DNA from: a virus
Taxonomy: Duplodnaviria; Heunggongvirae; Uroviricota; Caudoviricetes
IMG/VR virus record: IMGVR_UViG_2698536484_000026
Length of the DNA stretch: 64,000 nt
Direction: 5' to 3' (one strand)
A program made the translations under genes and the position numbers. Below the pieces are notes generated by a model that was given only the letters and a program-made list of their open reading frames with translations, did no database searches and was not told the DNA's origin. This document shows positions 7,866 through 13,178 of the stretch, one piece after another (position 1 is the first letter of the stretch; every line of letters starts with the position of its first letter).

Positions 7866-8010
7866 GTAAGTGTTTACCTATCATTTTAAATCATGTATCT
7901 TATCGGCGTCAGGATGACAATGTGTCGGTAAGACACAGTTCCAGGATGGAACGAGAAAGGCGGCTGGCAATCGCCAGCCGCAACTCTTTCTGACACTGGA
8001 TGGAGTCCAC

Positions 8011-8505
8011 ATGGCACGTCAAACCTATTTCACTTCTGCAACTAAACGTCCTCGTTCTTTACGTCAAATTTTGGCCGAATTATTTAGCGGTCGTGTTATG
8101 TCACGTCTTGATGAACTAGAGACTACCGTTCGGTTGCTGAATGAACGTTTAGATAATCAAGCGTCAGTTGTTGCGAACGTGGGGGCGATTGTTGCCTCTG
8201 GTTCTTCACGCGAAGCGAAAAGTACACGGCCTTTAGTGAAGGAGAAAAACAACAAGGACAGTTCGAATGGAAAATTTTCAAAGAAAGAGGCTGAAACCAA
8301 TGGCCTACGTTCTCATTATAGTTTCACTGGCGACGGTAGCCGTTCCAGCCGGCCAGAGCCTTTTGATGCCGGATTCATCCATCACCACACCTTCGTCGAC
8401 GACAATTACCACCACTCCAGTGGAGCGTCCTGTCACTCTGGATGGGATGGCGGTGGATGCGATACCTCAAGTTCATCCAGTTACTCAGGATCATGCTGTG
8501 ACTAA
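8011..8505 (+). CDS. Hypothetical protein (C-terminal part questionable; overlaps next ORF in another frame)
   Basis: Good RBS and coiled-coil-like N-terminus; C-terminal 60 aa looks like out-of-frame low-complexity translation. Confidence 0.25.
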   Translation: MARQTYFTSATKRPRSLRQILAELFSGRVMSRLDELETTVRLLNERLDNQASVVANVGAIVASGSSREAKSTRPLVKEKNNKDSSNGKFSKKEAETNGLRSHYSFTGDGSRSSRPEPFDAGFIHHHTFVDDNYHHSSGASCHSGWDGGGCDTSSSSSYSGSCCD

Positions 8506-8518
8506 GGCGGTTGTATGA
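8267..8518 (+). CDS. Small membrane/secreted protein
   Basis: Hydrophobic segment MAYVLIIVSLATVAVPA; stop overlaps next start (ATGA). Confidence 0.35.
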   Translation: MENFQRKRLKPMAYVLIIVSLATVAVPAGQSLLMPDSSITTPSSTTITTTPVERPVTLDGMAVDAIPQVHPVTQDHAVTKAVV

Positions 8519-8703
8519 ACTGGTTTTCAAATCACTTTGGAAAAATTTGGCTGGCAATTCTTGCCCTCATGGCCGCCGGTTGGGTATCGAACATTATAAA
8601 ACTTGTTTGCTCTGGCGATCTCCAGTTTCAGGCTGGCATGACCTTGGCTCGTGTAGTTGGGATTTTTGTTTTTCCAGTTGGTTCGGTACTTGGTTATTTC
8701 TGA
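8515..8703 (+). CDS. Small membrane protein (two hydrophobic segments)
   Basis: IWLAILALMAAGWV and VVGIFVFPVGSVLGYF hydrophobic stretches. Confidence 0.4.
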   Translation: MNWFSNHFGKIWLAILALMAAGWVSNIIKLVCSGDLQFQAGMTLARVVGIFVFPVGSVLGYF

Positions 8704-8796
8704 CGGCTGTTAGTGCATATGCATTGACCATCTCTGCGTAAGCAATTTATGTAATTAGAAAACAACTTGTTTTGACAAATAATAAAAGGAAAACAC

Positions 8797-9222
8797 ATGT
8801 TAGGTTTCTTCAAAAAGAAAACTCGTAAAGCTGTTATCGAAGTCAAAAAAATGGAGAACCGTGATGCGGTTGAGGCCACCGTGTGGGGCGCGTACATGAT
8901 CTCCTATGCCGACGGCACATGTGACGCAAAAGAAATTGCCATTCTTGAGAAGACAATTGCAGCTCTGCCTGCGTTTTCTCCGTTTGCTGGTGAAATTGCC
9001 CAAATGAGCGCCAATATCCGTGCTCGTTACGAAGCGTCCCCTCGTTCTGCTAATGCACAGGCTATTCGTGAGCTGTCTGATATTGCGGGTACTCCAGAGG
9101 CGGTCGATGTTCTGTGTCTGTGCCTTGATATTGCCGATCAGGACGGCATTGGTGAACAAGAAGAGCAGGCACTGAAAAAGATCGCCCAGGCGCTTCAGTT
9201 GTCACTGGATGCTTATCTCTAA
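8797..9222 (+). CDS. TerB-like domain protein (tentative)
   Basis: YADGTCDAKEIAILE...DIADQDGIGEQEEQALKKIA resembles TerB-fold pattern; preceded by AAAACAA-N-TTGTTT motif. Confidence 0.45.
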   Translation: MLGFFKKKTRKAVIEVKKMENRDAVEATVWGAYMISYADGTCDAKEIAILEKTIAALPAFSPFAGEIAQMSANIRARYEASPRSANAQAIRELSDIAGTPEAVDVLCLCLDIADQDGIGEQEEQALKKIAQALQLSLDAYL

Positions 9223-9381
9223 TGCTTGAGAGATTCCGGCTTGTGATCGTCATTGCTCTTCTGGTGATGGCGGTGTTGGTGGATTTTACGGGAAAGATGA
9301 TGTCTGTCATTTCTGATGGCGTCCTCATTGGTTTGGCGATCTACTTCGCTTATCCGTTAGTTCGTAAAGCAAAGTGCTAAT
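9223..9381 (+). CDS. Small hydrophobic protein (52 aa)
   Basis: Mostly hydrophobic; ATG abuts previous stop; followed by terminator hairpin at 9383-9403. Confidence 0.3.
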
Positions 9382-9519
9382 GACAAGGGCCAAATGGCCC
9401 TTGTGTTTCGTTGACCGAAATAGAGAGTTTGCACCTTTACGTTTAGCTTGCTCCCCTTTTATGCCACATCACAATAAAGCCAATAAGAAAACAACTTGTT
9501 TAAGCATTAGGAAAAACAC

Positions 9520-10086
9520 ATGTGCAAGAAATGCAAAGCGATAGCTGATGAACAAAACGCCTTATTCGAAGAAATGGATGCTAATGAACTGGTCAAAATG
9601 TTAGCCATTCTTCGAGGAATAGAAGACGTTTCCATATTTGAGAGAGTGGTTACAGCACTTAATTATGAGTCCGCCTTTGAAGAGCCAACTCAGATTGTAG
9701 CTTTAGCACATCATTTCGGTGTTCATTATCTTGCTGAAAAAGAGAGAGCTGATAAGTTGCAAGCGACTTTGGATATGGTGAGCGAGACTCAAGGATCTCA
9801 TGACGGTAATAAAAGTGAGACGATTATTGCCAGCAAAGATCGTGAAATTGCCGGGCTTAAATCCTCTCTAACGATGTTGATGTCTGCAATTAACCTTATG
9901 TCTTCTAAAGCAGGTTATAAAATGCCATCACTAAACAGCGACGATCCGATGGCCGTTCGCCAGCTTTTAGGTGCAATGGCCGACCAGCTCGACGACACAA
10001 AGAGTCGCCTTGAAGACATGATGCGGGAGCTCACGCATCGCCATGACTTGAATAAGCAGCCGCACAAAACGCAATACGCACTCTAA
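9520..10086 (+). CDS. Hypothetical protein
   Basis: ORF preceded by conserved AAGAAAACAACTTGTTT motif and RBS; terminator hairpin 10104-10119 after it. Confidence 0.45.
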   Translation: MCKKCKAIADEQNALFEEMDANELVKMLAILRGIEDVSIFERVVTALNYESAFEEPTQIVALAHHFGVHYLAEKERADKLQATLDMVSETQGSHDGNKSETIIASKDREIAGLKSSLTMLMSAINLMSSKAGYKMPSLNSDDPMAVRQLLGAMADQLDDTKSRLEDMMRELTHRHDLNKQPHKTQYAL

Positions 10087-10227
10087 TACTGCACCAGTCG
10101 ACAGGGGGCGAAAGCCCCCATTTTTACGCCTTAAATCTGCTGTAACGCCTATGAATGCAGCTTTTATGCCTTTTCAAGTTTGCGATAATTACACCAATCA
10201 GAAAACAAATTATTTAATGGTGTAATT

Positions 10228-11913
10228 ATGAATACAGCCCTTTCTATCATCGACGATGCCAGCTCAAACACGGCTATCGACTATCGTCAGGAAATGAATG
10301 TCATCCACGAAATCGTGGCCGAGTGCGAGAAAGAGATCGCCTTCATGTATCAGGTACACGACTTCGTTTATGGCGACGAACGCCACAACATGATTAATCG
10401 CCTGCTGAGACTAAACCATCGACCAGATGAAGATCGCTCGCGTTTAAATCGAGGTTGGTTGGATAAAGTCGATCTGGAATGGGTGAAACAGAATATTTGG
10501 GCCGAGTACTGGAGGAAGGTCACGGACATGACTAACGTTTTGCTGATCATGCCAGCTTCCCGTCGAGATGAGTGGCGCGAGCAGTTTATAGAGGGCAAAC
10601 AGGAAGTCATCAAAACTGACAGAACCGGCTACCAGATGAAGGTTAAAGAGTTCGTTGGTGTACCGGAGTTCAAAGCAGAAACGGTCATACCCACGATGCT
10701 TAATTTGCTGAATGACAGGCACAAATATCTCTCTGAGCGCGTGTATGGCTTGTTTAAGGCGCTGAGTCCTGCGCACAAGACAAATAAGACAAACGGTTTC
10801 AGCGAGCGTCTGATAATCGCTGACTGCATTTCTGATTTCTGGCGGGACAGCGTTAGCGTGAACTATCGCAAAGAGGACTACATCGACGATCTGCGTGTCT
10901 TGCTTCATTTCTTCGCGCACAAAGAATTTATTACCATCAACCGCACTGCTGAGGTGCTATCAGCTGCGTATAGGGCAAACGACTGCCAGACCGGTGACTG
11001 GATGAACGTCGATGGAAATCTGATGCGCGTGAAGATGTTCAAGAACGGCAACGTTCACTTTGAAATACATCCTGACGTGGCCTGGAAGTTGAATGAGGTG
11101 CTGGCTTACAGTATGCCTGCTGCAATCCCCGCGCCATGCCGAACTGCGCCAAAAACACGGGCACCAAAGCAGTTCGGTTTAATCCAGAAGACGATCTCCG
11201 TGCCGGTTCGCACTGCGCTTCGTGACGGGCGATTGAGCAAAGACAAAGGCGTATGGTACTTCTCTGATTCAGCTCTCCAGAAGTCGCAGGTGGAAGAGCT
11301 TGAGCGCACACTTAGCTTCATTGGCGGCGTGCAGGAGAAAAAGCACTGGCAGTTCCCGTATGAGATCGGCCATACGCTAAATACGATTGTGGCTACCGGA
11401 TTAATACCGGATACAAAATCACACCAGTTCTACCCTACCCCACGCTTGATTGCTGAGTACGTTGCCAGAGCCACTGAATTGAAGCCTGGTGAGAAGCTGC
11501 TGGAGCCTCAAGCCGGACGTGGGGAGCTTCTGGCCTATATTAACGCCGATCTGGAAGATGTTACCTGCATAGAAATCGCACCTCTCTTCGCTGATATCCT
11601 GCGTGGAAAAGGGTATACGAACACGATTTGCTGCGACTTCATAAAGTGGTCTGAGGACAACGCAGGTTATCAGTTCGACAAAATCGTTATGAACCCGCCG
11701 TACTCGCTTGGTCGTCATAGAGAGCACACGATGGCTGCGCTGGGGCATCTGAAAGTCGGCGGGCGTCTTGTAGCAGTATTGCCGGGCACTGCGCCAATAC
11801 TGGACTGGATGACGATGGATAATTACGTTTATGCCAGAGGGAAGTCGTTTACCAACGAGTTTGAAGATACCGGGATCACAGTCAGCGTATACGTTTTCAA
11901 ACGCGTTAAATGA
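10228..11913 (+). CDS. Putative N6-adenine methyltransferase fused to a large N-terminal domain of unknown function
   Basis: C-terminal FYPTP, EPQAGRGELL and NPPYS motifs; N-terminal 380 aa unassigned. Confidence 0.6.
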   Translation: MNTALSIIDDASSNTAIDYRQEMNVIHEIVAECEKEIAFMYQVHDFVYGDERHNMINRLLRLNHRPDEDRSRLNRGWLDKVDLEWVKQNIWAEYWRKVTDMTNVLLIMPASRRDEWREQFIEGKQEVIKTDRTGYQMKVKEFVGVPEFKAETVIPTMLNLLNDRHKYLSERVYGLFKALSPAHKTNKTNGFSERLIIADCISDFWRDSVSVNYRKEDYIDDLRVLLHFFAHKEFITINRTAEVLSAAYRANDCQTGDWMNVDGNLMRVKMFKNGNVHFEIHPDVAWKLNEVLAYSMPAAIPAPCRTAPKTRAPKQFGLIQKTISVPVRTALRDGRLSKDKGVWYFSDSALQKSQVEELERTLSFIGGVQEKKHWQFPYEIGHTLNTIVATGLIPDTKSHQFYPTPRLIAEYVARATELKPGEKLLEPQAGRGELLAYINADLEDVTCIEIAPLFADILRGKGYTNTICCDFIKWSEDNAGYQFDKIVMNPPYSLGRHREHTMAALGHLKVGGRLVAVLPGTAPILDWMTMDNYVYARGKSFTNEFEDTGITVSVYVFKRVK

Positions 11914-13059: not shown

Positions 13060-13178
13060 GCGCTACAAATCCTTCTGCATGAATAAATAAAGGCCATAAC
13101 TTATGGCCTTAAATAAATTGTTTTCTGCCTTTTCTTATTTGTGAAAATAACCACAACTAGAAAACAACGGAGTTAAGA

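Follow-up and report, generated by a model that had tools for sequence, protein, structure and literature searches.

The subject of this account is a group of small open reading frames (ORFs) at positions 8011–9381 of the window, by which we mean the whole 64,000-nucleotide stretch of the IMG/VR virus record IMGVR_UViG_2698536484_000026 (Caudoviricetes). The first part of the group, 8011–8703, probably constitutes an operon of three genes, here called A, B and C, that is conserved after rnhA in phage-plasmids of the SSU5/pHCM2 type, and within it the 3′ half of A is likely to be overprinted, in the +1 frame, by a true protein-coding gene, B, with genuine dual coding of the shared DNA; this estimate, formed by comparison of sequences, applies to the two propositions jointly. 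As overprinted phage genes, A and B are a pair of a known kind. A preliminary description of the region had treated all of these ORFs as one cluster of small membrane proteins around a TerB-like protein, and had suggested that the overlap at its start was a frameshift, a sequencing error or a spurious call. The recurrence of this layout across genera and in distant contigs speaks against all three suggestions, and the supposed cluster comprises two separate units: A, B and C after rnhA, and a swappable pair encoding the TerB-domain protein and a DUF3927 protein.

Genes A, B and C and the genes for the TerB-domain and DUF3927 proteins lie on the + strand. Gene A (8011–8505) encodes 164 amino acids and is preceded by a Shine-Dalgarno sequence, GGAG, at 8002–8005; gene B (8267–8518) encodes 83 amino acids in the +1 frame relative to A, has a Shine-Dalgarno sequence of its own, AAGGA, at 8254–8258, and contains a further in-frame ATG at 8300. 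The stretch common to both, 8267–8505, is 239 nucleotides long and comprises codons 86–164 of A and codons 1–80 of B. Gene C (8515–8703; 62 amino acids, with two hydrophobic segments and a match to phrog_6006) begins at the very end of B, the stop codon of the one overlapping the start codon of the other as ATGA at 8515–8518. Wherever C is present this junction takes one of two forms, ATGA or, in the Klebsiella clade, GTGA, and A and C stand directly after rnhA in all 15 annotated relatives. Farther downstream, the stop of the TerB-domain gene overlaps the start of the DUF3927 gene (TAATG at 9220–9224). The positions of the ORFs and the overlap of A with B in another frame are as the preliminary description had them, the coupling of which it spoke corresponds to start/stop overlaps at two of the junctions, and its remark that small hydrophobic proteins flank the TerB-like protein also holds: in Kyte-Doolittle windows, B has one membrane-like segment (residues 8–35), C has two and the DUF3927 protein has two, with none in A or in the TerB-domain protein. 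One Klebsiella plasmid (NZ_CP031791.1; locus L014, 2592–2780) carries a C homologue with a GTG start overlapping the B stop that is absent from the gene table of the plasmid collection.

Related loci, 87 in number, were gathered, and the A/B region exists in them in 58 versions that differ in nucleotide sequence. In 56 of the versions, from six or more genera, both frames are open, the layout having been seen in elements of Escherichia, Salmonella (SSU5 and pHCM2), Klebsiella, Enterobacter, Citrobacter, Cronobacter, Kluyvera and Buttiauxella; hence it is both frames, and not one of the two, that are conserved in relatives. The A stop always lies 13 nucleotides before the B stop, in all clades and also in the distant contigs L095 and L096, the start of B is conserved as M(E/D)(N/Q)(F/Y)Q-RKRL-P-MAY, and indels within the A/B versions are multiples of three. 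In the two exceptions, L065 and L087, an indel in the variable stretch shifts the frame and so joins the N-terminal part of A to the C-terminal part of B. Similar joins occur in databases, where many ‘A’ proteins of 168 amino acids begin as A and end as B, the point of fusion differing from one to another along the overlap; among them are P0036, P0040–P0043, P0049, P0050, P0058 and P0059, the Klebsiella proteins P0062 and P0069, and the divergent P0053. The P0036 fusion is present on 80 contigs and looks like a real lineage; most of the others are singletons and may be read errors. Such variants are either read errors or tolerated mutations.

A profile search with B through 1.84 billion representative proteins extended the comparison to distant homologues (P0196, P0197, P0198, P0202 and P0205, within the series P0196–P0205), which are some 35–45% identical to B by an estimate made by eye from the listed sequences. 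They retain the basic N-terminus, the hydrophobic helix, an L(D/E)GM-x-(L/V)D motif and a T(K/E)-x-x-A end. In the distant contigs L095 (an NCBI assembly) and L096–L098 (from metagenomes), the gene caller took B and left out A; an A-like ORF is open there as well, with a coiled-coil N-terminal part and a tail ending G-Y-D-S-G-C-S-D-S-x-S-S-S-G-x-x-D. L095 and L096 have no C gene, and the palindrome and the TerB cassette considered below follow directly after B.

The distribution of constraint between the two frames was estimated by a site-class test, in which changes were sorted by their effect in both frames with an OLGenie-like script of our own. For A, the ratio dNN/dSN is 0.33 in the part that belongs to A only (0.30 with ten clade representatives) and 1.14 in the overlap (confidence interval (CI) 0.74–1.94; 1.08 with the ten representatives), the values obtained for the overlap ranging from 1.08 to 1.53. 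Changes that affect the B protein are rare: dNN/dNS for B over the overlap is 0.45 (CI 0.31–0.66; 0.42 with the representatives), and not one of 2000 bootstraps reached 1; in B codons 1–37 it is 0.27 (CI 0.17–0.41; 0.26 with the representatives), which falls under the interval of a control frame, the +1 frame of the A-only part.

Nucleotide diversity per codon position provides a model-free measure that is independent of this test and agrees with it. At positions 1/2/3 of A, diversity is 0.29/0.20/0.43 in the A-only part, the classic signature of frame A, and changes to 0.30/0.14/0.04 in B codons 1–11, with its maximum at the third and its minimum at the second position of B; the pattern continues in B codons 12–37 (0.32/0.18/0.10). 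Counted in the B frame, positions 1/2/3 of codons 1–37 thus have diversities of 0.14–0.18, 0.04–0.10 and 0.30–0.32. It is then high and flat, about 0.37 throughout, in a Thr/Pro-rich linker, and low and flat (0.21–0.26) in the last 24 codons, as would be expected if both frames were constrained there. Amino acid identity is greater in the B frame than in the A frame across B codons 1–37 (0.87 as against 0.63 in codons 1–11), and in the last segment greater in the A frame (0.72 as against 0.65). The N-terminal 85 codons of A therefore evolve as a normal coding region, coding periodicity changes to the B frame from the B start onward, and the middle of the overlap is a linker that is hypervariable in both frames. 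To call B spurious is at odds with this, since in the first half of the overlap the signature of coding is that of B, the frame dropped by annotators. A, the annotated frame, is kept open.

The evidence concerning the second half of A is of a different sort. Synonymous codons were resampled with the B protein held and the A frame scored, and with the A protein held and the B frame scored. When B is held, the A frame stays open in 3–12% of resamplings, depending on the lineage. At B wobble sites where T would create an A stop (TAA, TAG or TGA), T is found at 0 of 326 sites (0 of 8 columns), as compared with 38.8% of positions (46 of 70 columns) at other B wobble positions (Fisher p = 4.5e-4). 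The A frame thus appears to be kept free of stops by selection, and the position of its own stop is fixed. A and B illustrate cleanly, in natural sequences, how constraint may be divided between overlapping genes, and single-base changes can separate the frames: T8268C removes the B start (ATG to ACG) and is silent in A (AAT to AAC), and G8293T converts A codon 95 to a stop (GAA to TAA) and is silent in B (CTG to CTT).

Several observations weigh against dual coding. The site-class test is pairwise and takes no account of phylogeny, and it is biased towards apparent constraint, the control +1 frame giving 0.61–0.66 and not 1. In the last 13–23 gap-free codons the ratios are 0.81–1.15 for A and 0.76–0.94 for B, with intervals so wide that neither frame is resolved. 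Given the A protein, the B frame is open by chance in 10–70% of cases, and openness alone lends B no support. The AlphaFold2 models of A and B are of low confidence, and none of A, B and C has a match in Pfam, NCBIfam, PADLOC (defence systems) or the sequences of the PDB. Natural −1 frameshift variants (P0036, L065 and L087) join the N-terminal part of A to the C-terminal part of B and persist, so that the element does not depend on the C-terminal parts of A and B for its maintenance. Finally, A is without amino acid constraint over most of the overlap, and its tail could be a tolerated run-on. This would be the case if only B were functional in the overlap and A were a helical protein of about 85 residues, whose ribosomes run on to the next stop; the openness of the tail would then be inherited, or kept for the sake of translation (for example to avoid polarity or to carry ribosomes up to C). 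We regard this alternative as unlikely, although by no means negligible. It agrees with the contrast between the A ratio in the overlap and the 0.30–0.33 found upstream, with the predicted disorder of the A tail and with the existence in nature of frameshift variants that replace that tail. It does not readily explain why the A frame is open in every lineage when 3–12% would be expected by chance, why T is shunned at all of the at-risk sites, or why the stop is fixed in all clades, L095 and L096 included; nor does it account for a tail end, G(W/Y)D-x-G...SSS...D, that is still recognisable in distant relatives of the L095/L096 type, or for the low, flat diversity of the last segment and its greater identity in the A frame. 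Since the A frame is open, with its stop in place, in L095 and L096, which have no C, delivery of ribosomes to C is not the reason there, and is weakened as a general reason for an open A.

The converse proposal, that A alone is a gene and B a chance open frame allowed by the Ser/Gly/His-rich composition of A, its apparent constraint being a by-product of A or of the method, is very improbable in our estimation. The frequent chance openness of B and the spurious ratio in the control frame lend it some credit, as does the calling of A and not B in all RefSeq, SSU5 and Cyrano annotations; but on this proposal the third position of A should vary most, and in B codons 1–37 it varies least, while the B ratio of 0.26–0.27 lies under the control interval. 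Moreover, the start of B is conserved and has a Shine-Dalgarno sequence before it, the N-terminus is basic and then hydrophobic, the B stop overlaps the C start in all C-bearing clades, and distant homologues retain the B motifs while the A sequence on the same DNA diverges. We attach next to no probability to the overlap being a sequencing or assembly error, a pseudogene or a programmed frameshift that yields a single A–B fusion, despite the 168-residue fusions in databases with their junctions at many positions. Error and pseudogene were rejected because the layout recurs in 56 different sequences, which come from separate projects and from several genera. As for programmed frameshifting, no slippery site was seen, a shift into B would need to be +1, and the fusion junctions are scattered and mostly singletons, as expected of random one-nucleotide deletions or read errors; in addition, the signal-like N-terminus of B makes sense only at a free N-terminus.

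There are also known systems that A and B resemble, although there is only a very slight probability that they are a spanin-like (Rz/Rz1) pair or a toxin module of the hok/mok type. As in lambda Rz/Rz1 and other overprinted phage pairs, the 3′ part of a gene for a coiled-coil protein also contains, in its +1 frame, the gene for a small, Pro/Thr-rich protein that is predicted to be exported, and constraint is split between the two frames. In contrast to an i-spanin, A has no N-terminal membrane anchor (its maximum hydropathy is 0.79), and in contrast to an o-spanin B has no lipobox cysteine, there being no cysteine at all in B of the window and no conserved Cys or lipobox across clades; a spanin was rejected for the absence of both features. 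The locus is not a lysis cassette, its neighbours being rnhA and methyltransferase genes, and B runs 13 nucleotides past A and is coupled to a third gene. With hok/mok/sok the locus shares an upstream frame that overlaps the gene for a small hydrophobic protein, behind a structured, conserved leader. A is, however, 164 residues long with a conserved N-terminal domain, unlike mok, the overlap reaches the end of B and not just its start, and no antisense RNA gene or other antisense regulator was identified. A precursor of a ribosomally synthesized and post-translationally modified peptide, or of a microcin-like peptide, was considered on account of the Cys/Ser/Gly-containing tail of A and was rejected, as there is no modifying enzyme nearby and no amino acid constraint.

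The N-terminal part of A is conserved and contains one long helix, residues 17–64 in the AlphaFold2 model, in which the predicted local distance difference test score is mostly below about 55 after residue 65. Its tail, predicted to be disordered, is rich in Ser, Gly, His, Asp and Cys and ends C-x-SGWD...SGSCCD; the highest hydropathy over 19 residues is the 0.79 already mentioned, no segment reaching 1.6. B consists of a basic start, MENFQRKRLKP, a hydrophobic helix, a VPAGQSLLMPD motif, the variable Thr/Pro-rich linker and a conserved end, LDGM-x2-D-x-IP...VTKAVV; its model comprises an N-terminal helix, the remainder being of low confidence. The N-terminus, with four basic residues, some 15 hydrophobic ones, A-x-A/T and then V-P, is compatible with a signal peptide that is cleaved off as well as with a signal anchor, and B is accordingly predicted to be a small exported or membrane protein. 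C is a predicted two-helix membrane protein of a wider phage family of about 60 residues (GWVxNIVKL...ARVVGIFxPxGSVLGF), members of which stand alone in distant contigs; no A/B-like pair was found upstream of the distant C homologues that were checked.

If these predictions are taken together, the operon would be transcribed from a promoter near 7873–7901, through a structured leader; ribosomes would start independently on A, by way of GGAG, and on B, by way of AAGGA with a spacing of 8 nucleotides, and those terminating B at UGA would reinitiate at the overlapping AUG of C. A would be cytoplasmic, with its long helix and disordered Cys/Ser/His-rich tail; B would pass into or across the inner membrane by means of its basic-then-hydrophobic N-terminus, placing the Thr/Pro linker and the conserved end in the periplasm; and C would be a two-helix partner in the inner membrane. 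An accessory envelope function of a resident element, for example phage exclusion or modification of the host envelope, is a tentative suggestion for which the chances are somewhat short of even.

The 145-nucleotide spacer between rnhA and A is more conserved than the genes that flank it. It contains a putative structured leader or small RNA (7908–7991, + strand) that is 80–90% identical in 504 plasmids in which the A/B DNA is about 70% identical or less, or barely alignable; a non-coding leader that is more conserved than the genes downstream of it is therefore a candidate regulatory RNA. Its fold has a z-score of −4.64. The parts of the leader are a first GGA (GGA-1, 7912–7914, within GUCAGGAUGAC), stem–loop (SL) 2 at 7921–7937, SL3 at 7938–7952 with a GGA in its loop (7944–7946), and SL4 at 7960–7981 followed by the tail AACUCUUUCU. 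Compensatory changes were found at four pairs of SL2 and at three pairs each of SL3 and SL4, and the cells of these three stems are paired in 94–99% of cases, compared with 12–58% when the partners are slid. The GGA of the SL3 loop is kept in all clades while the stem that bears it covaries, GGA-1, in the upstream motif (C/A)AGGAUGA, is likewise conserved in all clades, and the Shine-Dalgarno region of A contains GGA in most clades (in L095 and L096 it is AAGAGG, without GGA). SL1 as a hairpin has no support in distant relatives, and every column is invariant in the long-range helix proposed by RNAalifold (7908–7917 with 7986–7995). SL4 with its U-rich tail looks like a leaky terminator. Upstream of the leader, a promoter is inferred from TTTACC (7873–7878) and TATCTT (7896–7901), separated by a 17-nucleotide spacer on the + strand; the two hexamers recur from clade to clade when the intergenic sequences are aligned, and the site, with 8 of 12 matches, is not among the hits of the promoter scan.

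The repeated GGA recalls the RNAs that bind CsrA, that is, CsrB with its CAGGAUG loop repeats and leaders of the glgC type. The leader shares CAGGAUG, at 7910–7916, and likewise has CAGGAUGG in the SL3 loop and a GGA in the Shine-Dalgarno region of A; it differs in having only two or three such sites. At 7907–7952 the Rfam CsrB model scores 16.8 bits (E 0.11), far below its gathering score of 71, and no CsrB/Rsm family was matched at that level. A CsrA-responsive leader or small RNA could be present and is a reasonable lead, not a finding. The more extended idea, that an old and selectively kept A/B dual-coding module stands behind a leader that binds CsrA, or that yields an early-terminated, GGA-bearing small RNA that titrates it, strikes us as unlikely. 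Were it true, widespread phage-plasmids, pHCM2 of S. Typhi included, would tie an envelope-directed module of three proteins to the Csr state of the host.

The element as a whole, judged by its relatives, is a phage-plasmid of the SSU5/pHCM2 type. The 64-kb window is 99.9% identical to E. fergusonii plasmid pRHB19-C05_2, and the region is 97–99.9% identical in pRHB19-C05_2, in the phages Cyrano, PhiR41_1 and CMS-2020a, and in more than 170 E. coli plasmids. Such elements are common, and are carriers of resistance genes also. Of 5426 complete E. coli genomes, 210 contain the A/B/C stretch, almost invariably on a plasmid, and in these 210 genomes A and C are annotated and B is absent from the annotation. 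Related stretches occur in about 680 plasmid records from Klebsiella, Salmonella (pHCM2), Enterobacter and others. Public annotations (RefSeq, SSU5 and Cyrano) call A and C and do not call B, which is almost never annotated because gene callers forbid long overlaps. In PHROGs, A falls into phrog_10411 and residues 12–83 of B into phrog_15659, so that each frame has its family; neither of these, nor phrog_6006 for C, has a function assigned. In the literature on SSU5/pHCM2 phage-plasmids and on TciA/TciB, nothing was found on A, B or C.

The second unit begins with the TerB-domain protein (8797–9222; 141 amino acids), which matches PF05099 over residues 33–136 (31.5 bits against a cut-off of 24.4, E 2.4e-7) and phrog_632 (E 4.8e-63), and is 78.7% identical in amino acid sequence to TciA of phage P1 over its full length. 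It is followed by the DUF3927 protein (9222–9380; 52 amino acids), which matches PF13064 (46.6 bits against a cut-off of 25, E 3.4e-12) and phrog_1470, ‘TciB-like’, and which is annotated in Cyrano as a P1 TciB-like protein. The two genes, 8797–9380, are to all appearances a separate mobile copy of the known tciA/tciB cassette of P1, and this part of the region is already known and annotated. The order, tciA and then tciB, and the end-to-start layout are those of P1 tciA-tciB(-tciC); the window cassette differs in having no tciC and in its setting, an SSU5-type backbone with a palindromic junction motif upstream of the cassette. A tciA/tciB-like pair recurs in many unrelated phages, and the P1 annotation of tci function is by homology only. 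The position that the cassette takes up here is occupied by an antirepressor of the Rha family in SSU5 and pHCM2, by a restriction enzyme in L011 and by nothing in L005 and L012. A terminator-like hairpin at 9383–9404 (+ strand), ACAAGGGCCAAATGGCCCTTGT followed by GTTTCGTT, closes the cassette.

The junction motif, in the form AAAACAA-C-TTGTTTT, lies at 8759–8773, 24 nucleotides upstream of the TerB start. In the window as a whole AAAACAA-N-TTGTTTT has 26 strand matches, 3.9 being expected, and none of 100 shuffles had as many; these represent about 15 sites. Besides the one before the TerB gene, palindromes precede ORF188 (9488–9502) and a methyltransferase gene (10202–10216), and further sites are at 13111, 21884, 21935, 25159, 25643, 26546, 27310, 29916, 32538, 37497 and 37522. 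The three palindromes examined are about 12–25 nucleotides upstream of a start codon and are followed by AGGAAA-CACATG. The motif marks the boundaries of cassettes, and could serve as an operator, as an element of early promoters or as a junction for recombination.

The ORF of 188 amino acids (9520–10086; phrog_5508) is a unit of its own behind a palindrome of this type, and after it is a strong, terminator-like hairpin at 10104–10119, GGGGGCGAAAGCCCCC followed by ATTTTT. Some relatives have extra small genes between this ORF and the gene for the DUF4942 protein (10228–11913), the C-terminal methyltransferase region of which matches the PADLOC mad2 and type II methyltransferase models (E 3.5e-16).

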